Of a stretch of DNA of 64,000 nt, positions 4,047-36,701 are shown piece by piece (position 1 is the stretch's first letter; every line of letters begins with the position of its first letter). The notes below the pieces were generated by a model that was given only the letters and a program-made list of their open reading frames with translations, was not told the DNA's origin and ran no database searches. This DNA comes from Nemertoderma westbladi. Lineage: Eukaryota > Animalia > Xenacoelomorpha. Position numbers and translations under genes: made by a program. The DNA is taken from positions 1,988 to 65,987 of the forward strand of contig JAUCBJ010007727.1 in the NCBI GenBank assembly GCA_032718475.1, written 5' to 3'.

Positions 4047-4140
4047 TTCGTCCCGGATAGGCAATTTTTTTCAGAAGAATCACTTAGACTTGTCCATGAC
4101 TAAGTTATAAACGTTACAACTATTAACTAAACATTTTTAG

Positions 4141-15430: not shown

Positions 15431-16171
15431 CTACAGTGAAATGTTAATCTACAGTGACTAGGGTGACTACATATACAGAAATGTTACTCTGCCGAAAACA
15501 ATAAACTAAAGTCAATAGAACAGGTTACTCAGATGTTATTTAACTGGGATGAATTTTTATTGCGTCGAGATTATATCCTATATATGCAATTAATTGCAGT
15601 TACTGTAACAACTGCACGGTAAATGATCTTACACTTACCCTACTACAATGGCTATCATTATTGGAGAATTCGCCACCAGCGGTGGCGAATTCATTTTTTC
15701 CGCTCCATTTGCTATAGAGTTGGATCATCCTTAGTCCTGTTTAATTACTTAATAATTTATACAATCTATGAATGTTAAACACATATAAAATACAAATCAT
15801 TGTTTTGTATTAATAAAATCCACTACCTCAGGATAATAAACGTAGCAGTGCAAATAATAATTAGAAGTACAACCATGAATTAAATATTAATTATTAATGA
15901 ATTTGCATGAAATGGAATCCAATTACCAACAACGTAACACGGCAGTTTATTGCAGTCGTTTACGAGTGCAATCTTCCATGTACCAGCTGAATTCGCACAT
16001 CAGTATATTTATTGTTCGTATAAATCTGGATTTTTATGTTGTTACCACTAAAGAGATAACAGCAGCCCAATGGCTACATTCTCACACCAGGAGATCTCGT
16101 ATCTTTATGGCGTAGTAGTTAGTGAAACTTTGGTGTGCAAACAAATTATTTGCATTGAAAAATATTTCATA

Positions 16172-16296
16172 CCTTTAGTAAACAGAGTGGAAGGGTTTAA
16201 TGTGGAAGATCACCCATGGTGGTGAAGAGGCATTCCTTTAGTAAACAGAGTGGAGGGGTTTAATGTGGAAGATCACCCATGGTGGTGAACAGGCAT
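16172..16296. repeat. 63-bp satellite, left remnant (~2 units)
   Basis: Same unit as 33184-36370, interrupted at GGCAT by the LTR element. Confidence 0.9.
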
Positions 16297-18180
16297 TATT
16301 GGAAGAGACGGTAACAATACCTGCAATATCCTACTGTAAAGTTTGTAAATCAAATCATAAATCCGACCTTCTCACCAAAACAGTAAACTCTAAGTAAGCG
16401 AATATATTGCAGTATCGATCTCTTATAACCGGTGAGGCAGAAAACAGTCTACGAGCAGACAAACTTCGATAAAACAAAATCCCGCGCAGCGAATCCTAAA
16501 ATCAGGCTGACTCACTGACGGACTAAGGGGCTCGTATACTTTGCCGCGGTGTGATTTATATGGTTTGGGCAAAGGGACGCTAGCTAGGTACAGAGGCAGA
16601 TATTTGGAGATGTCTAACTAGCGGGCAAAGCACAGTACGGACAAAGTTAATTTTATATATTTCGAGGTGTAAATAATTTCTAACGCGCGTGTGTTAATTC
16701 TGAATGGTCAAAACAGTTTTGCTCCTTCACATATATAATTACTGGGTACGGTGTGCATTTTACGAATATTCTAATTTTGTAACTTGTAGGTCCAATACTC
16801 ACGAATGATAAGGTTCCTTCCCCTCTTGCGTATTTCCAGGACTCAAATTCAGGCATAAGGTTAATACTACGCCCAGAATTCGGCAATTTTAGGTACCAGG
16901 TCCCTGATACTAAGAAGAGATGTGTTAGTTTACTACTGTAGGCGTACAGGTACTAATAGCTATCCTAGCTCCTATCTAGAATTTTAGTCACCCAGGTAGT
17001 CCGGGTAACTTCCTATTAGGGCGTTGGCGGGGACACGGTAGATGTTAGTATATCCCTGATAGCCTCAATTTATTTGCGCCTAGTGTAAACTGCCCTACCG
17101 CCCGAACGGTACAATCCCAATTCAGGTGAAAACACAGCAACCCCCCTAGCCTACAAGTTCTGATGTAATGGACACCGTTGTACGGCAAATAGTCGCACAC
17201 ACACCTGTACTTAGCAAGAGTTAAGCGTACAGTTTGCTGCACCCTAACCAATGTGTATGCCTTGTACCGGTGTGCCTACGTCCTATCTGCGTACTAGTAT
17301 CTCTGCTCTCTCTCCCTCCCCCCGTAGGAATGTGAAGGTCTACTGTGGGTTTTCCTGAATCAAGACAGTACAGTCCCTATGATGTAATTTTAGGCTTGCA
17401 GCGTGTCACTACGTCTACCTTTTGATCTTTTGGTCTTACACTTAGGTAGCAAGGATCGAACGCTGTCTAACCTTTCAGGCGATGGGCGAATAACTCCAAA
17501 TGGTATTGCGGGTTGTCTCTCGTCTACATTCCCGTGATGTTCCCGTTCATTGCTGCGGCCCGATCTCTAGCCGGCCATCCTGTCCCTGAGTTTGTTCACC
17601 GTAGTGAATCCATAGTAAAACAGATAGAAAAGCTGAGAGAATATTCTGACTTTATTACAGAAGATACAATACAATGTAATCTGAGAATAAACTAAGCACG
17701 GAATAAACAAATATCAGATAACTGAATAACTGAGAGAATAATAACTAATGAACAAATCGCACCCTTTTATAGCCAATTTGTGCCGCAATCAATCGAGAAA
17801 ATTCTCGATTGTTCTATGGGTTCTAACAAGGTTTTAAAGATAGCTATTGGTCCAGCTAATATATAACTTGCACGACATTGGTTACAATCAAATAACTACA
17901 GCCTCATTGGTACAGACAAATGCAATTAATTTGTAGCGGTTAATTTAAATGAGTTGAAATTCTGCACAAAAAATAATTCGCACTTACTAGGATTCGAACT
18001 CGATACCTACTACACATATAATTTCCAACGCTCTACCAACTGAGCTACTGAACCACTTGACCGATAGATGTACAAATGATAGAACCAATACGAATGAGAA
18101 CTCAAAGCAATCTTTACAAAGTTAATTCGAATAAAATAAAATTTTGAAAATCCACGGCATTTAGGGAATATAATTCTATA
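16297..18180 (-). repeat. 3' LTR (1884 bp)
   Basis: Direct repeat of 31300-33183 at offset 15003. One mismatch noticed (16320 C vs 31323 A). AATAAA on minus strand at 17069-17074. Confidence 0.97.
17968..18054 (-). ncRNA. tRNA-derived Pol III cassette in U3 of the 3' LTR (not a functional tRNA)
   Basis: GGTTCAG-TAGCTCAGTTGGTAGAGC (A box with intact D arm), GAGTTCGAATCC (B box), T6 run. Acceptor, anticodon and T stems do not pair. Confidence 0.7.
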
Positions 18181-18664
18181 CCGCTCCATGAAAACAGGAT
18201 ATTATCGTGCATAAAATATACGGTTTTCACCAATAATCAATCAAACTATAGAATACTTAGGGCGTACTTACATATTTACAATTAAATTTCAAACGATACT
18301 TCCTTTCTACGTAATGATTCGATACAAAAATAATTACAAATTCAAACTTTACGTATTTAAGGCTTTACTAAGTAAGTACAATATAAATCTAAATTAAATT
18401 CACCAATATAAATCTATTGCATCTCAGATATTGCATAAATTCAAACAATTACAAATACAAATAAATGAAAACAATAAGAAAGGCTCGCGAGTCTTCCATC
18501 TACTATTGCATCCCAAATATTGCATAAATTCAAGTAATTACAAATACTTTCGTACCTAAATGTAGATTGCATAAGTTTGGAATAATTACAAATATGAGTC
18601 TTTCTGAGCACAAAATTTTCTATCTATAAAACTTTCTATTTCACTGTAAATACAAATACTGCTT

Positions 18665-19000
18665 ATAAAATATAAATTGCATAATATTCGGAACAATATA
18701 AATTGCATAAGTTCGGAATAATATAAATTGCATAAGTTCGGAATAATATAAATTGCATAAGATCGGAATAATCACAAGTATAAAATATAAATTCTTACAA
18801 ATATAAGTCTTACTAAATATAGATATAAACTGCATAAGTTTAGAATAATATAAACTCCTTTGCATCTTCAAATATGAAACATAAATCTTTCAAATATAAG
18901 TTCCTTCTAAATATAAACTCTCTAAATTTCATAAATTCGGAACAATACAAATTGCATAAGTTCGGAATAATATAAATTGCATAAGTTCGGAATAAACACA
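18665..19000. repeat. Degenerate 25-bp tandem repeats in the element 3' UTR
   Basis: Unit TATAAATTGCATAAGTTCGGAATAA, about 4 tandem copies at 18670-18770 and further copies to 18995. Confidence 0.85.
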
Positions 19001-19077
19001 AATATAAATATAAATTCAAATAAATCACAAATCATAAGAAAGGCCCACGAGTCTTCCGTCCACCCTTGCCCTCCCCT

Positions 19078-20592
19078 TTATCGCTTAGTGGATCGAGCCC
19101 TGCCGCGTCCTCGAAAACTGCGCACAGGTGACTTTGCTCGCGATATGGGACTAATGGGGCGAGTCACTGATTTACTTGGGACGTTGAGGGACGGTGCGAC
19201 TATTTCCTCGCAAATTCGTCTGTTTGGCATCCCAAAACCTCGACCGATTCCTCGTGACCGATCAGTCGTCACTACAGTTGGTAGAACGTCTGGGAACGCG
19301 CGAGAAGTGGACGACGCAGACCCAAGAGTAGCTTGCGCCCCCTGTTGATCAGCTGGTGTATGTCCCGATCCTCCTACCGGTTCTCTTGGAAGTGATACCG
19401 TATCCCGAGTAACTCGAATAGTCGGCTCAACTCCCTTGCGTTCTTCTACATTAATAATTTTCTTCAATTGTTGGCCCACCTTCTGGACCCGTATGATCCT
19501 ACCCTGCCCGTCCTCCCGAGGGTGACGTGCAGACGGCGCAACCGGAGTGGCTGGTATATTCGTCGCCTCTAGGACCTCTTCTTCCTCGAATACGCTCGCT
19601 CGTATACGTTTGTGGTAAAACGCGGCTCGGTACGCCCATGCGACGGTTAACCAAGCTCCCTTGTTCCGCTTTTCAGTTCGGAAACGATCGAATTCACCAT
19701 ACGTAATCCGATTAACGACTTTCTGAAAATTCCACGTGTTTTTGTTATCCGGGTGAATTTGTAACAGATACTCGCGCACCACTCGGAATCCGCTGTCGTG
19801 GGGCAAAATATCGACAACCTCGATAAGTTCGTCATATTGGGGCATAGCGGAGATATATCCTTCTGACATCATCGTCTGAGGATTTACCGCCCAAAATCCA
19901 AGATGCGCTCTCATCGGAAACCGTCTTCTCTGTGCTGATACATGTTCGTCGGCTAAATCTTCCCACTCATCAAATAACTTCCTCACGAGTTTTACAGATT
20001 CGTGTTCATAAGGTATGTCTCTTAGTTGGCATTCAGATGCTCGATGTCCCTTTATATTGCAGTAAGTACATTGAGCCATAAATCTCCAGCAAGTATAAAA
20101 GGTATGAGACCCTTGATCCCCACACCATCCACAGATTAGCTGAGTCGTAGTAATGTGCTTTCCACTGCACTTTGCCATATGATGTCCAGCGACGCCACAT
20201 TTACTACACATCGTATTGGCAGGGTACCACACTCGTTCGTATATAAGATCTCCAATCGGTCGAGCGCTTCCTCCCACACTATAATCGTAATCATCTGGGT
20301 CTATGGGTTGGTAGGTTTCTGAAGGTTGTATACAAACTATAGCATCTGTTGCTTCAAGTTGTCGAATCTCCGTCTGAGATTTCTTCGGGAGGTTCCTTTC
20401 TATCTCAAGAAGTTCCTCTAAAGGATCGTCGGCGATCGTAGTAGTTACTTCGAATTCATCACCAAGGTGACCGATAGGCGCGCGCGTCTGCCGTGATTCA
20501 TCCGTAATTTCCACGATACGTTCTCCTTCATAGGGTAACAATGTAAACATAGATGGTCTTTCGATAAGAGATCCCGCACAGCGAAGATACAC
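19078..20592 (-). CDS. Extra ORF downstream of pol with three CCHC zinc knuckles (504 aa)
   Basis: CSKCGVAGHHMAKC, CGWCGDQGSHTFYTC, CTYCNIKGHRASEC. Acidic N-terminus and Arg/Ser/Gly-rich C-terminus. The ORF track starts at GTG; true start uncertain. Confidence 0.75.
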   Translation of the reverse strand: MYLRCAGSLIERPSMFTLLPYEGERIVEITDESRQTRAPIGHLGDEFEVTTTIADDPLEELLEIERNLPKKSQTEIRQLEATDAIVCIQPSETYQPIDPDDYDYSVGGSARPIGDLIYERVWYPANTMCSKCGVAGHHMAKCSGKHITTTQLICGWCGDQGSHTFYTCWRFMAQCTYCNIKGHRASECQLRDIPYEHESVKLVRKLFDEWEDLADEHVSAQRRRFPMRAHLGFWAVNPQTMMSEGYISAMPQYDELIEVVDILPHDSGFRVVREYLLQIHPDNKNTWNFQKVVNRITYGEFDRFRTEKRNKGAWLTVAWAYRAAFYHKRIRASVFEEEEVLEATNIPATPVAPSARHPREDGQGRIIRVQKVGQQLKKIINVEERKGVEPTIRVTRDTVSLPREPVGGSGHTPADQQGAQATLGSASSTSRAFPDVLPTVVTTDRSRGIGRGFGMPNRRICEEIVAPSLNVPSKSVTRPISPISRAKSPVRSFRGRGRARSTKR

Positions 20593-20888
20593 GTCTCGAA
20601 ATATGCTAAATCCTGCTCGAGTAAAGGCATTGCTGTCTTTGCGAGCTTCGCTGTACTTTCTGATAATTCCTTTATACCAAATATAGTGTAGTCTTTTGCT
20701 CCAAATCGTTCGAATGAAGCTGCCGCCTCCTCTTGGATATCATATCCCCATCTCGGCTCTCCTTGTATCCCTTTCTCCATAATTAGAGGTGTAGTTACAT
20801 AATCATTACTACTAGAGGGAATACAACAGAGTTTGTGGTTAGTTGTGAGGAGACGTGAGAGTTTCGTCTGCCTTTTGGGCTTCGACAA
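20445..20888 (-). CDS. Small ORF overlapping the 5' end of the zinc-knuckle ORF
   Basis: 147-codon open frame with internal ATG (MEKGIQGEPRW) and an HLCLHC motif. May be the frameshifted N-terminus of the next ORF. Confidence 0.4.
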   Translation of the reverse strand: MSKPKRQTKLSRLLTTNHKLCCIPSSSNDYVTTPLIMEKGIQGEPRWGYDIQEEAAASFERFGAKDYTIFGIKELSESTAKLAKTAMPLLEQDLAYFETCIFAVRDLLSKDHLCLHCYPMKENVSWKLRMNHGRRARLSVTLVMNSK

Positions 20889-21442
20889 CGCTCTAACCTC
20901 CTACCCATAGCCTAAGATCTAGGGTTTCTTTAATGACACGCTGCTTCTTATCTAAAATTTTTTGCCGAAATAAAAACGAATTTGGGCTAAACTGGCCGTG
21001 AGTCTAAAATACTCACTTTTTGATCCCAAACTATTATCAGAAAATAAGCAGTCAAGAATTAGTAATAAATATAGGGGAGTCTATTTATTGACGTAACTTA
21101 TTGAAACAAGACCGTGTAAAATTTAATTAAAAATTTTAAGAAAGGCTCGCAAGTCTTCCTCTCTTATTTCTCTAATTTTAAGTTCCACCCGACTGTACCC
21201 TGAAATCTATTCACTGGAGAAAATTTTAAAAATTTTCAAATCCAAATGGATTGTCTAAAATTTCGAAAATGTCTCAATATTGTGAGTTCCAAGTAGAATT
21301 CCATTTCTTATACCTACAAATCCCGCTCCTATGTGACACATAAGGGTACCACCCTCAATGTTCACATATAAAGACAATGGAATTCTACCGCTGTCCTTAC
21401 TACGGTGTACAGGTACGTGGAAATCTATTTTTAAACTCCTAA

Positions 21443-24400
21443 TTATTTACTAGTATTAGGTGGAGATTTGTAGTCTCCAGACTCGTTACGAGTCTCTTCA
21501 AGGAGTACGAGACGTTGAGTCGGTCTGTCTACTGTACGACCGTCAATTGTCCGTACCGTCACAGTTCTTGTCGCTCCATCCATAGATGGATGTGTGGCTA
21601 AAATGACACCTGTTATCCAGAAGCGTCTTTTTAGATTCACTTCTGCCAACAGCACGTGATCTCCCGGCTTTAATGCGCGGGTGTTATTATACCAAGTTGT
21701 TCTGGCAGAAATAGAGGGCAAATAATGGTTTTGCCATATTTCCCAGAATTTGTTAGCCAGTAGTTGCGTGATTTTCCACGCTTTTCTACCGTAGCTGTCG
21801 CTTTCTATTGGAATAGAAATCGGCGTTAATGTCGTCGGTGCCTGCATAAGCAGGTGTGCCGGTGTTAAAGCAAACTGGGATTGTTTGTCATCGGGTACTA
21901 ATACTATTGGTCTAGTATTTAGTATTGCCTCGATTTCAACAAACAATGTTGTCAGTTGGTCGTCTGTTAATATGTGGTTTACTGGAATGACCTTTGCCAT
22001 GGCTGTCTTTATAGATCTAATCAGTCTCTCCCAGACTCCGCCTCTCCAAGGACTATCTGGAGGATTAAACTTCCAAACAATCTTGTGAGGTTGTAGTTCG
22101 TTCGAGATTTGATCATGATCTAATTTCTTAAAGGCTCTAGCAATCTCATTCCGAGCACCAACGAAGTTTGTCCCTTGGTCTGAGTACAAGCATTTTACTA
22201 GTCCGCGTCTAGCGATAAATCGCCGCAGTGCTAGTATAAACGCGTTGGTGGAAAGATCCATCACACGTTCAATGTGAACTGCCCTACTGGACATACATGT
22301 GAAAATCAGTCCCCAGCGTTTTACTAGTATACGTCCACGTTTCGTATGTATGGGACCAAAGCAATCAATTCCAGTCTCTGTAAAAGGTGGTCTGAATGCT
22401 TGAAGTCGTGCTTGTGGTAGTTCACTCATTTCTTGGGTACCTATTCTAGAATGTACCTTTTTACAAATAATACACGTACGTGTCACTGAACTTAATGCTT
22501 TACTGGGTCTAATTAATACAAATCTAGTACGTAAGTAGGAAAGACAGTGGTGTCTTCCAGCGTGTTTCAGATGTAGATGTGCGTCCAGTATCATTGCACG
22601 TTGTAGTTCGTGGTGTTGCGGTATTATTATTGGGTACCTAAAGTTCGTGTTAAAGTCAATGTTTTGAAGCCGAGATTTATGACAAATTAAGCCATTATAA
22701 ATAATCGGACTCCAACTCAGTATTGGTGACGACTTGATTGGTTGACCTTGATTTATAGATGTGAATTCGCGCGCGAAATATCGCAGTTGGTAATGGCGAA
22801 TTAATTTAATCTCACACCTGTCAATCTCAGCCAATGTAAGTCGACGTGTAAAGTAACGTTTGCCTTTAACGTATTGTACAAAACGTACAATCCACGCTAG
22901 TTTTCGGCAAGCGTTCGACCAAGAATCTGTTAGGTTTACAATACGGTCGACATGAGTATTTGTGACGTCATCAGGTAAGTCAATGGAGAACTTGGAAGGT
23001 TTTGATTTACTAGAAGGGCCCACGGGTCCGCCGGTAGGTATTCCCTTGTTGACTGTTGATCCGTCCGGGTCTACAAGTAATTTGTCCTTCTTTGTCTTCT
23101 TACCTTGATTGTCAGTACTTTGTAAGTCGATCGTCAATGGTGGTTTGAACTCTATGGGATCAGTGGGTTTCGGTAAACTTATTTTTCTGCCGACATTAAT
23201 CCCAGGTCTCACCATAGGTTGCAAGTTCGGTATGTCTCTTGAGCGCAGAGTAACACCTGTATTTACATTAGCGTAGGTACTACCCACATCTGTAATACAT
23301 GAGGTTTCACCGTGCTTATGGTTGCTCAAGTGTGTCAAAATTGGTAGTTTGTCAATACAAGGCCGCTCCAATAGGGAAACTGCGGCTTTATCGTTAGTCA
23401 ATACATTACTAGTGTCTAGTCGACTGTCTAGTAATGTGTCTGGCGATACGTCTGGTAACGTATCTGGTTGTTTGTCAATAGAAGGCCGCTCCAATAGGGA
23501 AACTGCGGCTTTACTGTTTGTCAGTGTGTTACTAGCGTCTGGTGGAACATTTTGTGATATGTCTGGCAAAATGTCTGGTTGGCTGTCTAGTAACATGTCT
23601 GGTTGACCGTCTGGTAACGTGTCTGGTTGACCGTCTGGCGATATGTCTGGTGTAGAAAGGCTCGCAAGTCTTCCTCTCTTGACCTTTGAAGTTATATCTT
23701 TCCATTTCGCCTTCGGTTTTTTCTTGAGTTTCGCCGCCGTCGTCTTTTTCTTTGTCTTCCCCTTTTTTGGTTTCTTGATTTCGGCGTCCTTGGGAATGGT
23801 GTTGGACTTGTTGTCGTATAACGGAGGCCAATCTTGTGTCGATTTCTGCAAGAATTGGGGTCCGTGTTGCCAAAATTCTTTGTTCTCCGGTTTACAGAAT
23901 TCCTCAGGCATCATTCCTCGCGACGCAATATCAGCTGGGTTTTGTGGTCCGGGACAATGTCGCCAATCCCCTTTTATTGAACGGTCTAGAATTTCCGCGC
24001 GACGGTTAGCAACGAATGTCTTGAATTCGAGTGTGTCGTTGTTTATGTAAAATAAAACCAACGTCGCGTCAGTCCAATAAAATATCTGTAAACTCGACTG
24101 TAGTTCTGTCTGTATGAGGTTCACGATGGTGGTTGACAGGGTTGCGGCTTGTAGCTCGGCTCGTGGTGTCGTCATATACTTAGTAGGCATGGTCTTAGCC
24201 TTAGAAGTAATGAGCGAAACATCGAACTCGTCTGATTCTACTTGTCTGCGCAAGTACGCTGCCACACCAAAACCGTTGTCACTGGCGTCAGAAAAGCAGT
24301 GTAGTTCCAAGTTGTCAGGAAATGTACTTTGTAATGGAAAGTAAACCCTGGGTATGAAATAATCCTCTAGCGAAGATAATTCCGCCTCCCAGGTCTTCCA

Positions 24401-25893
24401 TAAGTCCACTTGGTCTGATGAGATCGGCTCGTCCCATGTTAGTCCATCCTTCCATATACTGCGCATATAAATGCGGGCTTGCAGTATCACTGGACTGATG
24501 AATCCTAACGGATCGAACAATCGGCTCAATTTTGACAAGCATGATCTCTTGGTCAGTGTGTTCTCTTGACTGTCCAGTCTCACTTTCACTCGAAAGTTGT
24601 CTGTGTTTGGGTCCCAAAAGAGCCCCAACACCTTAGTCGTCGGTAGTGGTTCGAACTCTAGGTCTATGTCACCACCTCCACGCTCAGTAGTTCCGAATGA
24701 GTCTACTAATTCGGCACTGTTTGAGGCGAATTTGGTGAGGTTAAAACCTCCGCCCGCCAAGCAGTCCCGTAATTGATGTGCTACTGTTGTAGCACGTTCT
24801 ACTGTGTCGCAACTCTGTAATCCGTCATCAACGTAAAAGTCACGCTCCACAATTCTAATTATCTCTGGGTCATATAGATGTTTCTGATCTCTAGCGGCCT
24901 GCTTTAGGGCGTACATCGTACAATTTGGGCTGTCTCTGGCACCGAAAACGCGAACTTGCATTTGGTAAGTCGCCGGTGGTAGACTTAAATCTCCTTCCGG
25001 GTACCAGAGGAACCGCAAACTGTCTCTGTCTCGCTCTAACGCCTTTACTTGGTGAAACATCGCTTCAACGTCACAAGTAAAAGCTACTTGACGCTGACGG
25101 AAGCGCATAATCACCCCCATAAGATAATTATTCATGTTCGGTCCATCCATCAACTCACTATTGAGGGACATTCCCTCAAACAGAGCCGCACAGTCATTGA
25201 CTACACGTACTTTGTCTGGTTTGTCGGGGTGTCTCACGTAGTGATGTGGCAAGTAATACGTTTGGTCGGTCACTCGCTCCGGGTTAGTCATTCGGATAGC
25301 GTATCCCTTTGTCAAATACGTCTCCATCTGAGTGTTATACTGCAGATGGGCTTTCTCGTCTTTTAATAGACGTTGTCGGATTGAGTGTAGACGTCTTAAA
25401 GCCAGTGGATAGTTGTTTATAAGTTTAGGACTTTGGCTACGCCATAACATCCCTACCTCATAATGTCCGTCTTTCGTCTGGTGGATAGTATCTTCCATGA
25501 TCTTCAGAGATTGTTTCTCCTGTTCCGACATACAAGGTTCATAGCTACCAGGTTCAGCTGTATCTTGTTCTAACCACCTGATAGTCTTCTCCGTTAATTC
25601 TTTGTCCAAGGCGGCTTGTTCCAACTGATGATTTCTCAACGCGTCATCATCGATATCGACGGGCACTGTTGAGGTTATTGGGGTAGGTAGACTCGCAAGC
25701 CTATCATCTGTCGTCGATGGAATCTCTAGCTGACTCGTCTTCCCCCCAAGTTCTAAACTCACCTTGTGGGTTAGCTGCTCCTTGTGACTTATCATACTAG
25801 TTACACGTCTGTCATGTTTTGTCGACTGTAGTGTAGTATGGTTCACGTCGTGTGAAAAGGAATGAATTGAATTTGTAGTTAATAAACTACATG
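21443..25893 (-). CDS. pol: BEL/Pao Pol: RT, RNase H, integrase, C-terminal DUF5641-like domain
   Basis: YYLPHH, DVEAMFHQV, FYVDD; LHCFSDAS, PRAELQAA, NPADIASRG; H..H..CxxC, GIDCFGP, SDQGTNF, GGVWERL. The frame stays open upstream of the 25846 ORF call up to the insertion boundary. Confidence 0.96.
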
Positions 25894-26096
25894 CAGGGCC
25901 GGATTAACCAGTAGGCTAATAAGGCTGAAGCCTTAGGGCCATTGAAAAAAGCGGTCACTTTCCTACAAAAATGTTGAATTGTAATGAGTTGAATGTAATG
26001 AGAGTTAATAGGAAGCCTATAAAATAGTCTGTAAAAGGGGCACTTTACATCATTAGTTTCTTAGTATATGGACCCGTCCGCGTCCGTCCATGTAGT
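25894..26096. mobile_element. One-ended hAT-MITE remnant interrupting gag-pol
   Basis: Begins CAGGGCCGGATTAAC (hAT-like TIR) and is flanked by CTACATG at 25887-25893 and 26097-26103. Removing 210 bp restores one continuous frame. Confidence 0.75.
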
Positions 26097-29000
26097 CTAC
26101 ATGTACTCTGTACATCGTCTTCCTCGTCACTTACGTCTAGTGTGCGCACAGGCGCTCGAGTATACCACCCTATCGGCGTTCTGCAGGCGTATGCGTTTCC
26201 CGCTACAACTGCCGATGGTCTGGTTTCCCACACCTGATGTAGGTTGAATTGGTCCGTCCCGATCAGCATTGCTACCGATCTATAATTGACAGGACATTCT
26301 GGTACACCAAGGTGTCTGAAATACTTACGGTCCTCTAGAGATTGTTCCGGCACTGGACCTAGTAGGTTACTAAAGTCCTTCGTGGCCGCAAAGGTTAGAT
26401 CTCTAAAAGGTAACAAAGACCTCTCCCTCTCGCTGTGCTGCGATTTCGGAAGAAGAGAGTCTAAGTCCAACTTAACTCGTGTCACTGGTATTGCACGCTG
26501 TCCGTGCATACTACTTACTGTATAACTGACGTGCTTACCTTGTTTTAGATCCGTCACGACGTCAGCTATCTTTTCGTCCACGTAGCTATGAGATGAGGCT
26601 GAATCTAGAATCGCATAGATCCTCTTGCTCCCCTTTGTGCCAGTAACCTTAATCGGGATTACACTGAATCCCTTCAGTTGATCAGTGGTCAGAAGCGCGA
26701 TCGACGGTTGTTCGTCTCCATTAGAATATTCGTCGTCGTCTTCTGATTCTTCGTCCGACGATCCGGATTGTTCTGAGAAGCAATCCTCAATATGGGTCAC
26801 GAAGGTTGGAGTCGTTTTTGATTCTCGTTTTCTATAGGCCGCATCACATCTCGCTGCTGCTTCCGGGTGTTCCCTGGCGAAGCGTTTCGTCGGCGTGTGG
26901 CTGTCTGTGTGGAGCAGACCGTCGTGGTTGCGTCCACAGGATGGACAAGTGTCAGTATTTGGGCAATCCTTACGCACGTGTCCGTGTCGCGTACACCGCC
27001 AACAAGAGTCCAGTGGCCGTATTTGCAGCCGTCGTTCTTCCGAGTTCAACTCGCGAAATTGTCGACAACCTCGTAACTTGTGACCGATATACCGCTTACC
27101 TAGATGCTCGCAGTATTGGCAGCCACTGAAGTCGGTACCAAGTTGCTGTCTCGTTTGTTTTGTCCCAATGGGCGCAGATACCCTACCTCCGTCCGAGAAT
27201 TGTCGTGATTCCGTCGGTGTGGTGTAAGTGGCCGTCTTAGTGGATGTTGTCTGGGGTTTTTGTCGGTTGGAGGATGGCAATGTGATCCCTTCTGCCACGA
27301 TGTGCTGGTCGGTGTAGTTAGATCGAGTTTCTACTACCGCCTCCCTGGATATTAAAAGGTACACATCTTCTAATTTTAAGAATCCTCCCCGCTCTTCTCG
27401 CTGGTATTCGACCTTCCTCCACTCCCGACGAAGTCGATGGTGGAGTCGTCCTATGATCTTTAATAGGACTGTAGGGGTATTCCCGTAATCAAGTTGTCCA
27501 ATTGATCTTAAGGTAGTGATAGCGTTCTTGATCTCGTCAGCTAGTTTTAGTAAGTCGACGGGTTTAGTGATAGCCCCTCCCTTACAGAGTTCCTCTATTA
27601 CTGACCTGGCCATGCTCACTGTACCTCCGTATATCGAAGTTAAACGATCGTACGCTAGTTCGAAAGCGTCCGGTACACCGACGAAAGTCTCCGCCAAACG
27701 TTTAGGTTCTCCTGACAACGTTTGAAGCAGGTAATTGAACTTCTCCCGTGATGTAAAGGCGCACACGGCGATCTGGGATTCGATATAGTCTACGAAGGTA
27801 TGCCAGTGTTTTGAGCTACCGGAAAACTTCGGTGGTTGTTGTACCGGCAATCCTTGTCTGGCTGCGAATTTCGCTATCTCCTCGGCAACGTCCAGAGTTT
27901 CGCGTCCTTGGTTGGTAGTCTGGTTGATGTTCTCCCTTCTTGGCGCTTTTCCCTGATACGATGTGTGTTTTGAAGGTACCGGTCTTTGTGGTTCCTTCGG
28001 GTGTCTATTGTGTTCGAATTCGGAATTTCTCGAACTGTCGGTGTAACCTTCCTCCAGACGTTCCTCGATCTGAGCCAACTTATTGACAACTGGTCGCAGG
28101 ATGTCGGCGAACTGTTGTGTACTAATTGCGTCCGTTGGTTGTAACGCCTTCTGTGTTGGTGTATTCTGTGGAGGATTGTCTGCAAAGGAGTTGTCTGAAC
28201 GCTCGCGTTTGTATTCATCGGCCGCCCCTGTTCTAAATACCTCGCGTTTCGGGTAATCCGATTCGCTCGAAGTACTACTATCATCCGGATATGGTGGTCG
28301 ACGTGCTCGCGTTCGTTGCGTCGTACGAATTCTAACGGTTCGTTTCGGAACATCGTCCACTGATCTCCGTTGTTCGGTAGGCTCACAAGTCTTCCTCGAA
28401 GTCGTAGATTGCGATGTAAATTGGTTGAATGGTCGCGTCTCCACTGTTCTCCGTTGTTCGGTAGGCTCACAAGTCTTCCTCGAAGTCGTAGATTGCGATG
28501 TAAATTGGTTGAATGGTCGCGTCTCCACTGTTCTCCATTGTTCGGTAGGCTCACAAGTCTTCCTCGAAGTCGTAGATTGCGATGTAAATTGGTTGAATGG
28601 TCGCGTCTCCACTGTTCTCCGTTGTTCGGTAGGCTCACAAGTCTTCCTCGAAGTCGTAGATTGCGATGTAAACTGAATCGGTGGTCGGACGACCGCGTTT
28701 GAATCCAAAGGCCTTGTAGGCCGAAATGTCATTGGGTATTCGTAGTGCGTAACGGGTTTAGGTGTCAAAGGTGGACTCACCTGTTTTGTCGTCAGTAGTG
28801 CAGGTCCGACTAATAAACTACTACGATCTGTAATCGGTGGGTTACTTACCTTGACTTTCGGAATAGGCGACGACGTTGCTCTTGGCGGTGTAAACTTGTC
28901 CGGAATAACAAACCTGTGCTCCGTCACACCATGGATAGGAGAGATATCGCTGCTACCAGCAATCGAAACAGGTTCCTTAGTCGTAACCGGTGCAAACATA

Positions 29001-30487
29001 TGAGTCACCTGTGGGAATCGTTGACACAAGTCCTTTACTAATTGTCGTTCCCGTCCGGGTGCTCCCACGCTTCCTTCTTTCTTTCGTTCCTGAATTTGGC
29101 GATGTCTTACCTCTATCTGGTCCAAGTCATGTCCGTCTCGAGATCTCATTGATCGATCGCGGGCCCTTTGATCCAGATCTTCCTCAGCGTTCGCTAATTC
29201 TCTCGCCTTCTTCTCAAGTTCGAAATGAAGTTTAGCTGTCTTCTCTCGTTGTTCCGTTTGTCGTTGTTGCGCCTCAAATTCTGCTTGTCGTATAGCGGAT
29301 TGAGCCTTTATTTGCCGTGTTTTCATTTCGGCCCGTGCTTCCGAAACTAACCTGTCTCGTTCTAATTCCGCCGCTGCCGCTGCCGCTGCCGCTTGTCGCT
29401 CTGACTCTGCCGCTTGTCGCTCTGACTCGGCCGCTGCCGCTGCCGCTTGTCGCTCTGACTCTGCCGCTGCCGCTGCCGCTTGTCGGGCAATGTCTACCTC
29501 TAACCTTTCTACTTCAGCTGCTTCTAATTCAGCTTGTTCCTGTAGATGAGAGATTCTCGCTTTATTCGCAACGCGTAGCTTCTCTTCCTCTACTGCTGCC
29601 TGCATCACTAGAAGTTGAGCTTGTTCCTCCATTTCTCGTCGTTGTCGGTAGAATTCTTGCTGTTGTCGAGCAACTTCTGACGTAACCATACTTCCCTCGC
29701 CAATTTCGCTACGAATACTTACCAACGATTGATCCAATATTCCTGGTGCCGATTCGATTTGTGCGAGCGAAGTTTCCCTCGTAGCCTCCGGCACGGTTTC
29801 CCAATCTCCGACGTCCTCGCCGCACATGCGTAAGTGATCCGTCAGGTGTTTCAATTGTCCATCCAGTCGGTACAGTTCCTGTTCTTCTTCGGGTTGTAAT
29901 AATTCGTCCGAAACTGACTCACCTAACAACTGATCCGCTTGTTCCTGTTGTATCTGTCTAATCGTCGACTTAAACTGAATCAGTTTCTCTCTAGCGATCA
30001 TTAGTTTCTCGAGGATTCTAAGTTGAGCATCCATGTCCTGTCTCTGTCTAGCTAGATCTTGTAGACCAATTAGGTTATCGACGGACTTGTGTACTCTACT
30101 TTGTACTCTAACCTGGAGGGTGTAGAACTCGAATCGAGACATCGGAGCGGTCAACTCGTCTAATATGCGATGACCTTCTCCAATACTCCTGGTTATATGC
30201 GCCATATATCCTCCGACGCTTCTAACCACACTTTCTGTGCTTCCTGCTGAACTTACCATTTCCGTTTCCCTATATCTAGGTTGCGGAACAGTTAGAAAGT
30301 CCTCGGTCCTGCCGTCGCCTCGTACTACGGCATCCGGTACTCCCGTTGGATGTACTGGTGACGCACACGGTGTAGGTTCGGTAGGCTCGCGAGTCTTCCC
30401 CTGTTGTTCCTCCGCTGCTGACTTATCCGCGTCACACGAGTCATAGTCGGTAGGTGTATTCTTCGTATAGTCTTGTTTGTCACTCAT
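26045..30487 (-). CDS. gag: BEL/Pao Gag and aspartic protease
   Basis: DUF1759-like PKFSG...W..F...EKFNYL, BEL-type triple Cys/His cluster (CQYC..H..C, CWRC..H..C, CPSCGRNHDGLLH), protease AILDSAS, TPIGW. The stop at 26045 lies inside the insertion. Confidence 0.95.
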   Translation of the reverse strand: MSDKQDYTKNTPTDYDSCDADKSAAEEQQGKTREPTEPTPCASPVHPTGVPDAVVRGDGRTEDFLTVPQPRYRETEMVSSAGSTESVVRSVGGYMAHITRSIGEGHRILDELTAPMSRFEFYTLQVRVQSRVHKSVDNLIGLQDLARQRQDMDAQLRILEKLMIAREKLIQFKSTIRQIQQEQADQLLGESVSDELLQPEEEQELYRLDGQLKHLTDHLRMCGEDVGDWETVPEATRETSLAQIESAPGILDQSLVSIRSEIGEGSMVTSEVARQQQEFYRQRREMEEQAQLLVMQAAVEEEKLRVANKARISHLQEQAELEAAEVERLEVDIARQAAAAAAESERQAAAAAAESERQAAESERQAAAAAAAAELERDRLVSEARAEMKTRQIKAQSAIRQAEFEAQQRQTEQREKTAKLHFELEKKARELANAEEDLDQRARDRSMRSRDGHDLDQIEVRHRQIQERKKEGSVGAPGRERQLVKDLCQRFPQVTHMFAPVTTKEPVSIAGSSDISPIHGVTEHRFVIPDKFTPPRATSSPIPKVKVSNPPITDRSSLLVGPALLTTKQVSPPLTPKPVTHYEYPMTFRPTRPLDSNAVVRPPIQFTSQSTTSRKTCEPTEQRRTVETRPFNQFTSQSTTSRKTCEPTEQWRTVETRPFNQFTSQSTTSRKTCEPTEQRRTVETRPFNQFTSQSTTSRKTCEPTEQRRSVDDVPKRTVRIRTTQRTRARRPPYPDDSSTSSESDYPKREVFRTGAADEYKRERSDNSFADNPPQNTPTQKALQPTDAISTQQFADILRPVVNKLAQIEERLEEGYTDSSRNSEFEHNRHPKEPQRPVPSKHTSYQGKAPRRENINQTTNQGRETLDVAEEIAKFAARQGLPVQQPPKFSGSSKHWHTFVDYIESQIAVCAFTSREKFNYLLQTLSGEPKRLAETFVGVPDAFELAYDRLTSIYGGTVSMARSVIEELCKGGAITKPVDLLKLADEIKNAITTLRSIGQLDYGNTPTVLLKIIGRLHHRLRREWRKVEYQREERGGFLKLEDVYLLISREAVVETRSNYTDQHIVAEGITLPSSNRQKPQTTSTKTATYTTPTESRQFSDGGRVSAPIGTKQTRQQLGTDFSGCQYCEHLGKRYIGHKLRGCRQFRELNSEERRLQIRPLDSCWRCTRHGHVRKDCPNTDTCPSCGRNHDGLLHTDSHTPTKRFAREHPEAAARCDAAYRKRESKTTPTFVTHIEDCFSEQSGSSDEESEDDDEYSNGDEQPSIALLTTDQLKGFSVIPIKVTGTKGSKRIYAILDSASSHSYVDEKIADVVTDLKQGKHVSYTVSSMHGQRAIPVTRVKLDLDSLLPKSQHSERERSLLPFRDLTFAATKDFSNLLGPVPEQSLEDRKYFRHLGVPECPVNYRSVAMLIGTDQFNLHQVWETRPSAVVAGNAYACRTPIGWYTRAPVRTLDVSDEEDDVQSTCRLHGRTRTGPYTKKLMM
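28358..28680 (-). repeat. 84-bp in-frame tandem repeat in gag (~3.7 copies)
   Basis: Encodes QFTSQSTTSRKTCEPTEQRRTVETRPFN repeats. Confidence 0.95.
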
Positions 30488-31288
30488 TTCGGTAGTTGTA
30501 AGTCAAGTAAAGTGAGTGTCAAAGTATCGGGTTTACCGTATTTATATCTAAACGGTACTAATTACAGTCTTATAAAATTAGCCTACCGGCCGATTTTATA
30601 GCAGATGGATAAAATTAGCCTAAACGGCCAATTTTACAGCAAATGAATGTCACGGAATAAGTATATAATAAAATTAGCCTAGCGGCCAATTTTATAACAA
30701 ATAAATCGGATAATGATATGCGTTATCAAAAGGTAAATTAAATACAATAATACGGACTAATTCAGCAATGAACAAAGAAATCATACGGAATGCATAAATA
30801 CTTGAGACAGTGGAACCCACAATAATTTTTAACTAATACGGTAATGCCTAACTTATTTATGCAACTTTTCGAACTCACCCACTCCAATAATTCTCCAGAA
30901 AAACAGATTCCCAGATACAAACCGAACGTGAACCTTTCCGTTTTTAACGTTGCGGACGAAACGCGATTTTCCCAACCAAAGTTGTTGAGTTATCTATCTC
31001 CCAAACTTGCTAAACACGGTCTTGCTCCCGTTACAGTCTAGAAATGAGTTCTGAATCCTGAAAAAACAAAAGAGTTAGGTTTTACTTTACGAAAATTTTG
31101 TACCGGTACAATATGGTATTTAAACCCTTTTTAAACACCGGTATTCAATTCCAAAAATATTTTACACGCGGTTCAAATCAAATTTTATTTCAAAATATTA
31201 GCACTTAGCTAATCAAATACAAAATTTTTACCTCAAAATACAAAATTTTCAAATAACTTTAGTCCTACCGAACCGTAGTTCAGTAAAA

Positions 31289-31299
31289 CACATTCCTAC
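31289..31299 (-). promoter_or_regulatory. Primer-binding-site position, non-tRNA type (GTAGGAATGTG)
   Basis: Directly abuts the 5' LTR, lacks TGG, and is the exact complement of minus-strand LTR sequence at 32327-32337. Confidence 0.65.
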
Positions 31300-32733
31300 T
31301 ATTGGAAGAGACGGTAACAATAACTGCAATATCCTACTGTAAAGTTTGTAAATCAAATCATAAATCCGACCTTCTCACCAAAACAGTAAACTCTAAGTAA
31401 GCGAATATATTGCAGTATCGATCTCTTATAACCGGTGAGGCAGAAAACAGTCTACGAGCAGACAAACTTCGATAAAACAAAATCCCGCGCAGCGAATCCT
31501 AAAATCAGGCTGACTCACTGACGGACTAAGGGGCTCGTATACTTTGCCGCGGTGTGATTTATATGGTTTGGGCAAAGGGACGCTAGCTAGGTACAGAGGC
31601 AGATATTTGGAGATGTCTAACTAGCGGGCAAAGCACAGTACGGACAAAGTTAATTTTATATATTTCGAGGTGTAAATAATTTCTAACGCGCGTGTGTTAA
31701 TTCTGAATGGTCAAAACAGTTTTGCTCCTTCACATATATAATTACTGGGTACGGTGTGCATTTTACGAATATTCTAATTTTGTAACTTGTAGGTCCAATA
31801 CTCACGAATGATAAGGTTCCTTCCCCTCTTGCGTATTTCCAGGACTCAAATTCAGGCATAAGGTTAATACTACGCCCAGAATTCGGCAATTTTAGGTACC
31901 AGGTCCCTGATACTAAGAAGAGATGTGTTAGTTTACTACTGTAGGCGTACAGGTACTAATAGCTATCCTAGCTCCTATCTAGAATTTTAGTCACCCAGGT
32001 AGTCCGGGTAACTTCCTATTAGGGCGTTGGCGGGGACACGGTAGATGTTAGTATATCCCTGATAGCCTCAATTTATTTGCGCCTAGTGTAAACTGCCCTA
32101 CCGCCCGAACGGTACAATCCCAATTCAGGTGAAAACACAGCAACCCCCCTAGCCTACAAGTTCTGATGTAATGGACACCGTTGTACGGCAAATAGTCGCA
32201 CACACACCTGTACTTAGCAAGAGTTAAGCGTACAGTTTGCTGCACCCTAACCAATGTGTATGCCTTGTACCGGTGTGCCTACGTCCTATCTGCGTACTAG
32301 TATCTCTGCTCTCTCTCCCTCCCCCCGTAGGAATGTGAAGGTCTACTGTGGGTTTTCCTGAATCAAGACAGTACAGTCCCTATGATGTAATTTTAGGCTT
32401 GCAGCGTGTCACTACGTCTACCTTTTGATCTTTTGGTCTTACACTTAGGTAGCAAGGATCGAACGCTGTCTAACCTTTCAGGCGATGGGCGAATAACTCC
32501 AAATGGTATTGCGGGTTGTCTCTCGTCTACATTCCCGTGATGTTCCCGTTCATTGCTGCGGCCCGATCTCTAGCCGGCCATCCTGTCCCTGAGTTTGTTC
32601 ACCGTAGTGAATCCATAGTAAAACAGATAGAAAAGCTGAGAGAATATTCTGACTTTATTACAGAAGATACAATACAATGTAATCTGAGAATAAACTAAGC
32701 ACGGAATAAACAAATATCAGATAACTGAATAAC

Positions 32734-32913
32734 TGAGAGAATAATAACTAATGAACAAATCGCACCCTTTTATAGCCAATTTGTGCCGCAATCAATCGAG
32801 AAAATTCTCGATTGTTCTATGGGTTCTAACAAGGTTTTAAAGATAGCTATTGGTCCAGCTAATATATAACTTGCACGACATTGGTTACAATCAAATAACT
32901 ACAGCCTCATTGG
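32734..32913 (-). promoter_or_regulatory. Putative LTR Pol II promoter
   Basis: Three CCAAT boxes (32909-13, 32880-84, 32849-53) spaced ~30 bp, TATAAAAG at 32774-32767, and Inr-like TTAGTT/TCAGTT at ~32749 and ~32734. Confidence 0.65.
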
Positions 32914-32970
32914 TACAGACAAATGCAATTAATTTGTAGCGGTTAATTTAAATGAGTTGAAATTCTGCAC

Positions 32971-33057
32971 AAAAAATAATTCGCACTTACTAGGATTCGA
33001 ACTCGATACCTACTACACATATAATTTCCAACGCTCTACCAACTGAGCTACTGAACC
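32971..33057 (-). ncRNA. tRNA-derived Pol III cassette in U3 of the 5' LTR
   Basis: Copy of 17968-18054. Confidence 0.7.
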
Positions 33058-33183
33058 ACTTGACCGATAGATGTACAAATGATAGAACCAATACGAATGA
33101 GAACTCAAAGCAATCTTTACAAAGTTAATTCGAATAAAATAAAATTTTGAAAATCCACGGCATTTAGGGAATATAATTCTATA

Positions 33184-36100
33184 GGCATTCCTTTAGGAAA
33201 CAGAGTGGAAGGGTTTATTGTGGAAGATCACCCATGGTGGTGAACAGGCATTCCTTTAGGAAACAGAGTGGAAGGGTTTACTGTGGAAGATCACCCATGG
33301 TGCTGAACAGGCATTCCTTTAGGAAACAGAGTGGAAGGGTTTACTGTGGAAGATCACCCATGGTGGTGAAGAGGTATTCCTTTAGGAAACAGAGTGGAAT
33401 GGTTTACTGTGGAAGATCACCCATGGTGGTGAACAGGCATTCCTTTAGGAAACAGAGTGGAAGGGTTTACTGTGGAAGATCACCCATGGTGGTGAAGAGG
33501 TATTCCTTTAGGAAACAGAGTGGAATGGTTTACTGTGGAAGATCACCCATGGTGGCGAACAGGCATTCCTTTAGGAAACAGAGTGGAAGGGTTTATTGTG
33601 GAAGATCACCCATGGTGGTGAACAGGCATTCCTTTAGGAAACAGAGTGGAAGGGTTTACTGTGGAAGATCACCCATGGTGCTGAACAGGCATTCCTTTAG
33701 GAAACAGAGTGGAAGGGTTTACTGTGGAAGATCACCCATGGTGGTGAAGGGTATTCCTTTAGGAAACAGAGTGGAATGGTTTACTGTGGAAGATCACCCA
33801 TGGTGGCGAACAGGCATTCCTTTAGGAAACAGAGTGGAGGGGTTTACTGTGAAAGATCACCCATGGTGGTGAACAGGCATTCCTTTAGGAAACAGAGTGG
33901 AGGGGTTTACTGTGAAAGATCACCCATGGTGGCGAACAGGCATTCCTTTAGGAAACAGAGTGGAAGGGTTTACTGTGGAAGATCACCCATGGTGGTGAAC
34001 AGGCATTCCTTTAGGAAACAGAGTGGAGGGGTTTACTGTGAAAGATCACCCATGGTGGTGAACAGGCATTCCTTTAGGAAACAGAGTGGAAGGGTTTAAT
34101 GTGGAAGATCACCCATAGTGCTGAACAGTCATTCCTTTTGGAAACAGAGTGGAAGGGTTTACTGTGGAAGATCACCCATGGTGGTGAACAGGCATTCCTT
34201 TAGGAAACAGAGTGGAGGGGTTTACTGTGAAAGATCACCCATGGTGGTGAACAGGCATTCCTTTAGGAAACAGAGTGGAAGGGTTTACTGTGAAAGATCA
34301 CCCATGGTGGTGAACATGCATTCTTTTAGGAAACAGAGTGGAGGGGTTTACTGTGAAAGATCACCCATGGTGGTGAACAGGCATTCCTTTAGGAAACAGA
34401 GTGGAAGGGTTTACTGTGAAAGATCACCCATGGTGGTGAACATGCATTCTTTTAGGAAACAGAGTGGAGGGGTTTACTGTGAAAGATCACCCATGGTGGT
34501 GAACAGGCATTCCTTTAGGAAACAGAGTGGAAGGGTTTACTGTGAAAGATCACCCATGGTGGTGAACATGCATTCTTTTAGGAAACAGAGTGGAGGGGTT
34601 TACTGTGGAAGATCACCCATGGTGGTGAACAGGCATTCCTTTAGGAAACAGAGTGGAGGGGTTTACTGTGAAAGATCACCCATGGTGGTGAACAGGCATT
34701 CCTTTAGGAAACAGAGTGGAAGGGTTTACTGTGAAAGATCACCCATGGTGGTGAACATGCATTCTTTTAGGAAACAGAGTGGAGGGGTTTACTGTGAAAG
34801 ATCACCCATGGTGGTGAACAGGCATTCCTTTAGGAAACAGAGTGGAAGGGTTTAATGTGGAAGATCACCCATGGTGGTGAACAGGCATTCCTTTAGGAAA
34901 CAGAGTGGAGGGGTTTACTGTGAAAGATCACCCATGGTGGCGAACAGGCATTCCTTTAGGAAACAGAGTGGAAGGGTTTAATGTGGAAGATCACCCATAG
35001 TGCTGAACAGTCATTCCTTTTGGAAACAGAGTGGAAGGGTTTACTGTGGAAGATCACCCATGGTGGTGAACAGGCATTCCTTTAGGAAACAGAGTGGAGG
35101 GGTTTACTGTGAAAGATCACCCATGGTGGTGAACAGGCATTCCTTTAGGAAACAGAGTGGAAGGGTTTACTGTGAAAGATCACCCATGGTGGTGAACATG
35201 CATTCTTTTAGGAAACAGAGTGGAGGGGTTTACTGTGAAAGATCACCCATGGTGGTGAACAGGCATTCCTTTAGGAAACAGAGTGGAAGGGTTTAATGTG
35301 GAAGATCACCCATGGTGGTGAACAGGCATTCCTTTAGGAAACAGAGTGGAGGGGTTTACTGTGAAAGATCACCCATGGTGGCGAACAGGCATTCCTTTAG
35401 GAAACAGAGTGGAAGGGTTTACTGTGGAAGATCACCCATGGTGGTGAACAAGCATTCCTTTAGGAAACAGAGTGGAAGGGTTTAATGTGGAAGATCACCC
35501 ATAGTGCTGAACAGTCATTCCTTTTGGAAACAGAGTGGAAGGGTTTACTGTGGAAGATCACCCATGGTGGTGAACAGGCATTCCTTTAGGAAACAGAGTG
35601 GAAGGGTTTAATGTGGAAGATCACCCATAGTGCTGAACAGTCATTCCTTTTGGAAACAGAGTGGATGGGTTTACTGTGAAAGATCACCCATGGTGGCGAA
35701 CAGGCATTCCTTTAGGAAACAGAGTGGAAGGGTTTACTGTGGAAGATCACCCATTGTGGTGAACAGGCATTCCTTTAGGAAACAGAGTGGAAGGGTTTAC
35801 TGTGGAAGATCACCCATGGTGGTGAACAGGCATTCCTTTAGGAAACAGAGTGGAGGGGTTTACTGTGAAAGATCACCCATGGTGGTGAACAGGCATTCCT
35901 TTAGGAAACAGAGTGGAGGGGTTTACTGTGGAAGATCACCCATGGTGGTGAACAGGCATTCCTTTAGGAAACAGAGTGGAAGGGTTTAATGTGGAAGATC
36001 ACCCATAGTGCTGAACAGTCATTCCTTTTGGAAACAGAGTGGAAGGGTTTACTGTGGAAGATCACCCATGGTGGTGAACAGGCATTCCTTTAGGAAACAG

Positions 36101-36370
36101 AGTGGAGGGGTTTACTGTGAAAGATCACCCATGGTGGTGAACAGGCATTCCTTTAGGAAACAAAGTGGAGGGGTTTACTGTGAAAGATCACCCATGGTGG
36201 CGAACAGGCATTCCTTTAGGAAACAGAGTGGAGGGGTTTACTGTGAAAGATCACCCATGGTGGAGAACAGGCATTCCTTTAGGAAACAGAGTGGAAGGGT
36301 TTAATGTGGAAGATCACCCATGGTGGTGAACAGGCATTCCTTTAGGAAACAGAGTGGAAGGGTTTACTGT
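33184..36370. repeat. 63-bp satellite, ~50 units with recurring variants
   Basis: Unit GGCATTCCTTTAGGAAACAGAGTGGAAGGGTTTACTGTGGAAGATCACCCATGGTGGTGAACA. Confidence 0.97.
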
Positions 36371-36701
36371 TGAAGATTTTTACTGTTATTATTTATTTAA
36401 TGAAAATCGGTTGCGATAAACTTATGTATATTCGTGTACCTTTACCTTTATATTCGTGTACTTTTAGAGAAAAAAACATACTTCTATCAAAATACACTAT
36501 AAAAATATACGGGACAATAGTAAAGTGTAAAGAAGAAAAAAAAAGGGGGGGGGGGGGGGGGGGGGTGAAAGTTCACTCTTTAGTATGCGTAATACCTTTT
36601 TAGAAAAAATGTATCATGAAAAAAAGTGAAAAAGAAACACTATGAAATAAAGTGAAAGTGACATAGTTTAGTTGCAAGGTGATGCTGAGTCTTAATCTCA
36701 C

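Follow-up and report, generated by a model that had tools for sequence, protein, structure and literature searches.

A dispersed palindromic motif in a BEL/Pao element

The window analysed here is a stretch of 64,000 nt from Nemertoderma westbladi (GCA_032718475.1, contig JAUCBJ010007727.1, positions 1,988-65,987 of the forward strand). It contains a BEL/Pao long terminal repeat (LTR) retrotransposon of 16.9 kb (16297-33183) whose sense strand is the minus strand, and along this element a 20-nt pseudo-palindrome occurs ten times, always in element sense. The motif is a real, element-specific repeat that is not due to chance, and it is probably a cis-signal, under selection, of an unusual BEL/Pao element. 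The principal parts of the element, in window positions and in the order of its transcription, are the following open reading frames (ORFs) and repeats.

31300..33183, minus strand: 5' LTR, 1884 nt, TA...TA ends
26045..30487, minus strand: gag-PR ORF, 1480 aa, with DUF1759, three Cys/His knuckles and a lineage-specific N-terminal extension of ~800 aa
21443..25846, minus strand: pol ORF (RT-RH-IN) with PF05380, PF17921 and PF18701, apart from gag in this copy
19078..20550, minus strand: ORF3, 490 aa from the ATG, with three CCHC knuckles (115-174) and an Arg-rich C-terminus
16297..18180, minus strand: 3' LTR, 1884 nt, inserted within a 63-bp satellite

An earlier note on this DNA had claimed about ten repeats of the motif along the element, and ten copies were indeed located on the sense strand. 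Nine of them fit GGAAGACT-YGYG-RGCCT, and the tenth (25686-25705) is a variant. The peptides which that note had read through the coding copies, GRLASL in pol and, in another codon phase, KTCEP/KTREP in gag, are correct.

30380..30399, minus strand: gag type, CGCG centre; gag codon 30, the first copy, 88 nt into gag
28628-28647, 28544-28563, 28460-28479 and 28376-28395, minus strand: four copies, gag type, UGUG centre; 84-nt tandem repeat
25686..25705, minus strand: variant copy, near-inverted; PR-RT linker
23655..23674, minus strand: UGCG centre; pol insertion; predicted 12-nt loop displaying the palindrome
21140..21159, minus strand: UGCG centre; lies between pol and ORF3 and shares an identical 27-nt stretch with the 23674 copy; 12-nt loop predicted here too
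19038..19057, minus strand: CGUG centre, A13>G; directly past the ORF3 stop
18478..18497, minus strand: CGCG centre; 3' untranslated region (UTR)

As four copies belong to one 84-nt tandem repeat, the set amounts to seven placements and six distinct 20-mers. Invariant positions number 11 of 20 and include G10, G12 and G14. The motif scan against shuffled and background sequence that had been proposed as a check bears out the specificity of the repeat: no match was obtained in 2000 dinucleotide shuffles of the internal region, the remaining 47 kb of the window hold a single match, with 3 mismatches, and the LTRs hold none at up to 4 mismatches. The best dispersed gapped 12-letter word forms five clusters in the element, compared with at most three in 200 shuffles. 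At up to 2 mismatches the motif is absent from 78 distant BEL loci (569 kb); nor do these loci have a dispersed repeat of their own, except for LTR or whole-element duplications and isolated three-cluster words. Single matches in viral contigs (11) and prokaryote genomes (7), one per locus in both cases, were taken as chance. None of 120 pol homologues contains any of the three motif-frame peptides, RLASL being found in five of them in other contexts, and a search of 16000-33300 against Rfam gave no match at E up to 5.

Three of the copies are non-coding and five lie in the N-terminal extension of gag that relatives lack (tblastn matches to gag relatives begin at residue 821 or later). One further copy sits in a pol insertion of ~250 aa (residues 701-950) that is missing in 20 homologues by alignment occupancy, and the variant sits in the poorly conserved PR-RT linker. 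Similarity between copies fades within a few bases of the 20-mer edges. Beyond 7 nt from the 20-mer, 6-16 of 46 flanking positions match (21 of 46 in one cassette-duplicated pair), and edges this sharp at the palindrome probably point to selection. Shared blocks of 24-27 nt indicate descent by copying; the copies would probably have spread by short-patch template switching and then been retained by selection. The family is variable: four public sequencing runs, with no RNA run listed among those containing the element, hold many diverged variants (1115 variant places). In the runs X3 and X4, one contig each contains the complete motif within a 36-nt block, in a 3' UTR setting without counterpart in this copy, so that copy position varies within the family.

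Folding and pairing of the copies

The earlier note had drawn the repeat as a frame-independent YGYG-tetraloop hairpin. As a folded unit, this hairpin is predicted to be marginal. Its predicted energy is -0.4 kcal/mol in gag-type copies, -2.0 kcal/mol in the others and -4.2 kcal/mol in the variant; its pair probabilities do not exceed 0.34 when 30-100 nt of flank are included, and at 9 of the 10 sites it is the antisense strand that folds better. The drawn fold suits only the four CCUUUC-type copies, gag-type copies having an additional A.A mismatch. The closing pair is U-A, UGCG loops occur in 3 of 10 copies, and loops of the YNMG class in 5. A G-containing tetraloop on a stable stem, as in Rous sarcoma virus (RSV), is not predicted in nine of ten copies (-0.4 to -2.0 kcal/mol), and the ten sites have no single predicted fold in common. 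At 23674 and 21159 a different fold dominates (P 0.97-1.0), wherein a GG/CC stem closes a 12-nt loop that exposes the core and presents the palindrome behind 5' purines, with accessibility in the top 1-2%. These loops presumably resemble the HIV-1 dimerisation initiation site (DIS) loop. As a general structure the GG/CC-stem loop was rejected, since it is the preferred prediction at two of eight tested sites and does not hold for the variant or for 19057.

A property common to all copies is self-complementarity. The whole 20-mer is pseudo-palindromic, the four bases drawn as a loop included, and in every copy G-U wobbles make the core CU-YGYG-RG complementary to itself. When core positions 7-14 of all copies are set against one another, the sense strand pairs in 288 of 288 cells, the antisense strand in 216 of 288; the sense core pairs throughout since only C>U and A>G changes occur and G>A is absent. 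The independent core changes number 4-6, all of them wobble-compatible, which gives p ~0.06-0.016 under a transitions-only null. The element has no sense TG excess (observed-to-expected ratio 0.89 for TG and 1.00 for CA) and shows no mutational bias that would yield the core pattern. Isolated copy-copy duplexes are predicted at -8 to -30 kcal/mol.

For the variant, the earlier note had described a stem that is kept, and the hairpin predicted here is the strongest of the set; the note overlooked, however, that every other copy has in the variant a near-inverted partner. Relative to the nearest type it shows 3 changes if inverted and 5 if direct. With every other copy type it forms 18 of 20 possible pairs, and for 8 of the 9 remaining copies it is the best predicted partner; of the 5308 long-range pairings seeded in the 15-kb RNA, variant:18497 and variant:30399 take the top two places after correction for accessibility. 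The self-complementary loop and the near-inverted variant favour RNA-RNA pairing over a tetraloop read alone. What stands of the proposed frame-independent signal is a probably selected sense-strand cis-element, with sharp edges and core changes that keep G or give G-U, whereas the case for the tetraloop as sole determinant is weakened. A further possible partner lies in the leader.

31261..31274, minus strand: leader complement, adjoining the primer site; can pair over 10-11 bp with the 3' arm of all five gag-type copies

Its pairing with gag-type copies is predicted at -19.7 to -23.0 kcal/mol, and 21 of 12297 downstream 10-mers have a leader complement, six of these coming from gag-type copies.

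ORF3, the leader and the rest of the locus

ORF3 lies downstream of pol and has a net charge of +11 in its final 40 aa (composition only). Its searches returned no homologue other than two generic knuckle matches (the best Atlas score, 0.87, is a lead only), no PDB match and no similarity to the element's own Gag, and both structure models, at pLDDT 35 and 38, are unusable. Three further features concern its expression.

20445..20780, minus strand: 111-aa ORF overlapping the ORF3 start; first long ORF of the predicted spliced RNA
20812..30878, minus strand: predicted GT-AG intron, 10 kb; donor GTGAGT, acceptor ahead of ORF3; one X4 contig, side of 30 letters
31058..32474, minus strand: predicted GT-AG intron that begins in the 5' LTR and ends in the leader; one X4 contig, side of 26 letters

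Both predicted splice joints coincide with consensus splice sites in the sequence; each comes from one contig, aligned at 80% likeness, of a run whose kind was guessed as DNA. The 10-kb intron contains 8 of the 10 motif copies, and ORF3 is probably made from a spliced RNA with two copies, the genomic RNA having ten. The homologue search for the 111-aa ORF was blank. Neither it nor ORF3 has a tblastn match in the 78 BEL loci, of which 62 reach the pol end and 15 have more than 1500 nt downstream, which makes their absence weak evidence for the rest. Two of these loci have ORFs of their own past pol, one of 464 aa with two CCHC motifs (L063:5813-7205), which may belong to a neighbouring element, and one of 297 aa (L050:9370-10261); neither shows tblastn similarity to ORF3. 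The third and fourth strongest predicted long-range pairings, 32418:20946 and 31031:21119, connect the predicted-donor regions with the region ahead of the ORF3 acceptor and could bridge introns.

The leader carries hairpins of its own.

30566..30702, minus strand: three related leader hairpins, 10-13 bp, between the splice donor and the gag ATG; -11.6 to -14.0 kcal/mol

These occupy the classical Psi position and form a family distinct from the motif; a longer predicted stem lies at 30788-30866. As candidates for a conventional packaging signal they are better placed than the motif. The primer-site position (31289-31299, minus strand) lacks TGG, and its first 11 nt are exactly complementary to an LTR-internal segment (32327-32337), a pairing predicted at -20.2 kcal/mol. 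A TATA-like word at 32774 precedes this LTR segment by 437 nt. The Tf1 self-primer has the same length, 11 nt (PMC7175516), and by analogy self-priming is possible in this BEL/Pao element. At 32975-33060 (minus strand), and at the same place in the 3' LTR, U3 contains a tRNA-like cassette with a D-arm-like hairpin, a T run and what we take to be A-box and B-box look-alikes; the cassette was not called by ARAGORN or Rfam, and ARAGORN made no call at all.

The element is assigned to BEL/Pao on its Pao-type pol, the order PR-RT-RH-IN, the domains PF05380, DUF1759 and DUF5641, and paired LTRs with a short target duplication. With LTRs 99.95% identical, and with ATGCC at 33184-33188 and 16292-16296 as its 5-bp target duplication, the insertion is young. 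Three Cys/His knuckles in Gag are a BEL/Pao feature, and the Gag of this element has them. Members of the group usually, if not by strict definition, have TG...CA LTR ends and a TGG-type tRNA primer site. Neither was found in this element; its LTR termini are TA...TA (33183/31300, 18180/16297) with a clean target duplication, and the primer position reads GTAGG. The nearest pol proteins are 37-44% identical, those that are named come from marine invertebrates, and no pol relatives were found in viral contigs. The element thus shares the domain set, domain order and this level of pol identity with BEL/Pao elements of marine invertebrates, but differs from them in its length of 16.9 kb, its TA...TA ends, the absence of a visible tRNA-type primer site, the extra CCHC ORF and the dispersed palindrome. 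Clade names follow PMC8556966 and PMC2774666; the placement is by domains and pol identity, not by a tree.

Apart from the motif copies, many further internal duplications are present in the element. AT-rich repeats of ~25 nt form much of the 3' UTR (18559-19025, minus strand) and vary among family contigs. At the gag/pol boundary, contigs of all four runs depart from the window, with ends that are not GT-AG. Elsewhere in the window are a 45-bp tandem array of ~120 copies with an open 1580-codon frame (~55640-61300), the 63-bp satellite (approximately 33060-36400), and 91-96% identical fragments of another repeat in both orientations (3100-4050, 13365-14530 and 39260-40390), one of which resembles a reverse transcriptase motif of long interspersed nuclear elements.

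What the motif set may do

We tentatively favour the reading that the motif set serves dimerisation and packaging as a multivalent RNA-pairing signal, with Gag or ORF3 as the annealing protein. Each copy would pair with another copy on the same or on a second genomic RNA. A zinc-knuckle protein, either the nucleocapsid (NC) part of Gag or ORF3, would open the weak hairpins and anneal copies into duplexes, and these duplexes would dimerise and compact the genome, favouring the packaging of unspliced RNA. Weak hairpins, duplexes, loop exposure at two sites and the variant as preferred partner are predictions of folding models; dimerisation, packaging and the role of a knuckle protein we infer by analogy.

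Partial precedents for RNA pairing come from retroviruses and Ty1. In Moloney murine leukaemia virus (MoMuLV), the pseudopalindromes DIS-1 and DIS-2 form extended duplexes (PMC7599994). As here, these are imperfect palindromic hairpins able to shift to intermolecular duplexes, with a zinc-knuckle NC as partner; however, MoMuLV has two such elements in its leader, whereas the ten copies of the present element, all compatible with one another, span 12 kb, with one near-inverted and none in the leader. The Ty1 palindromes PAL1 and PAL2 are required for dimerisation, which is Gag-assisted (PMC6844567). They too are self-complementary sequences in the RNA of an LTR retrotransposon, but they are short, 5'-terminal and of Copia type, unlike the dispersed 20-nt copies of this BEL/Pao element. 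A core self-complementary on the genomic RNA strand is thus shared with DIS and PAL (288 of 288 cells); a palindrome exposed in a loop, another trait of such sites, is predicted for 2 of the 10 copies.

Several observations weigh against the pairing signal. A 5' leader location and one to three copies are typical of DIS and PAL; here there are ten copies, the first already inside gag, and as both location and copy number differ the motif is not filed as a DIS. Covariation is not above shuffles, 385 of 500 of which reach the observed score. Eight of the ten cores lack unusual predicted accessibility. Self-pairing of the four UGUG copies is weak (-8.2 kcal/mol, 40th percentile), and the element contains 12 other 20-mers that surpass every motif copy in this respect. 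After opening costs the sense gain is small (mean -1.8 versus -0.7 kcal/mol antisense), and 13 of 55 sense pairs fall below -5 kcal/mol as against 10 of 55 antisense pairs. Nine of ten copies keep the A6.C15 mismatch, which pairing alone would need only if the variant is the partner. Further, retention of G is equally expected from knuckles binding G on the sense RNA; it can tell RNA from double-stranded DNA but leaves pairing and protein binding on a par. Finally, the 40 variant places listed among the 1115 are too few to gauge conservation per site across the family; none falls in the ten 20-mers, but ~0.5 would be expected, which makes the count uninformative.

The rival that survives best overlaps with RNA pairing. 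The motif could, with somewhat lower plausibility, be an RNA binding site for ORF3 or Gag, either a protein-stabilised hairpin or a loop displaying G10, G12 and G14, that serves export, splicing control or packaging in the way of a Rev/RRE or NC/Psi pair; this was the view taken in the earlier note. The 11 invariant positions of 20, these three G residues among them, are consistent with such a site, as is the conserved A.C mismatch, which is replaced by G.U in the variant. Further, ORF3 combines a basic tail with three knuckles, its RNA is probably spliced as for an accessory gene, 8 of 10 copies fall within its predicted intron, and motif and ORF3 are both missing from the 78 relatives. Rev, Rex and Rec with their response elements likewise combine a spliced ORF and an Arg-rich tail with sites that are mostly intronic. 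They differ in that no homology to them was found and in having one large response element where this element has ten short repeats. The packaging-loop precedent invoked by the earlier note is confirmed: in RSV, the N-terminal knuckle of NC binds G residues of a UGCG loop, though changing UGCG to GAGA left Gag specificity unchanged (PMC5035970). The RSV microPsi stem-loop SL-C and the present motif have UGCG (in 3 of 10 copies), invariant G residues and knuckle proteins in common (PMC5035970, PMC7599994). SL-C, however, is a single stem-loop in a three-way leader structure, whereas the motif has a weak stem, four loop variants and a dispersed arrangement. Against a protein site stand the marginal hairpin and the lack of a predicted fold common to all sites, the U-A closing pair with YNMG loops in only half of the copies, and the two unusable models of ORF3. 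A protein site also leaves the near-inverted variant and the leader complement unexplained.

An unlikely alternative is that the 20 bp act as DNA, as a palindromic operator of two GRWAGRCYYR half-sites, in either orientation, for a dimeric element or host protein, for example in VANC-like anti-silencing. The symmetric half-site pattern picks out exactly the ten sites in the window and none in the 78 relatives. The edges are sharp at 20 bp, and one copy is near-inverted (3 changes inverted versus 5 direct). The element has a CpG observed-to-expected ratio of 1.17, compared with 0.75-0.98 in the flanking DNA; a young element, however, requires no protection for a high CpG content. Like VANC targets, the motif shows turnover via tandem repeats (PMC5735166). 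The closest known parallel to a dispersed, element-specific motif with a protein of its own is that of the VANC targets: VANDAL elements also combine an extra element-encoded protein with a short motif that multiplies through tandem repeats. Yet VANDAL is a DNA transposon with demethylation at the DNA level, whereas this is a retrotransposon with a CCHC protein and transcript-strand asymmetry. The centre changes follow the transcript strand, in the inverted copy too (all are C>T in sense, none G>A), which is not expected of a symmetric site. The LTR promoter lacks any site. CCHC knuckles, moreover, generally bind single strands.

Still less credit is due to the view that the copies are a neutral relic, a small hairpin repeatedly moved by template switching of reverse transcriptase and surviving where insertions are tolerated. 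All copies lie in non-coding DNA, the gag extension, the pol insertion or the PR-RT linker, the element has many other internal duplications, and the 24-27 nt blocks attest copying. However, similarity stops at the palindrome edges in most pairs, with flanks at background, no other word is so dispersed in the element or its 78 relatives, and the core changes are directional. A scheme of competing intramolecular bridges, with one docking site and nine selectors steering splicing of the 10-kb intron or template jumps, is very improbable: 8 of 9 copies have the variant as their best predicted partner, and other predicted long-range pairings also flank predicted splice sites, but the variant lies mid-intron, distant from both sites, 11-mer complements are common in a 15-kb RNA (32 matches) and each splice joint was seen on a single contig. 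Motifs for IRE1, Smaug, Roquin, p53, BANP and the constitutive transport element were set aside as a poor fit. Rejected as well were an N6-methyladenosine site (absent from the variant), a tiny miniature inverted-repeat transposable element (inspection by eye showed no target duplications), a protease-site peptide (gag copies are read in another frame) and CpG decay bias (the element is not CpG-depleted).

RNA selection and dimerisation in LTR retrotransposons beyond Ty1 and Ty3 are poorly known (PMC6844567). Among BEL/Pao papers judged by titles and the beginnings of abstracts, none reported RNA selection or dimerisation, a repeated palindrome or a spliced CCHC accessory ORF, which at this scope is weak evidence of novelty. 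With a defined 20-nt signal, ten natural copies and a candidate reader protein, the question becomes testable with short natural RNAs. Should the DNA operator prove true, the element would be an animal retrotransposon parallel to VANC. A bolder and rather doubtful extension of the pairing signal is that a BEL/Pao element has turned into a complex retroelement. Its spliced orphan triple-knuckle protein, nine palindromes and inverted docking copy would then form a self-recognition network, in which the RNA dimerises or condenses only with its own kind and which decides between splicing and packaging. Palindromes have been argued in silico to permit RNA self-recognition (PMC13079385). If the pairing signal is real, this element would provide a natural case of what has so far been proposed in silico, and would show that a retroelement can have such signals dispersed along its RNA instead of confined to the leader.

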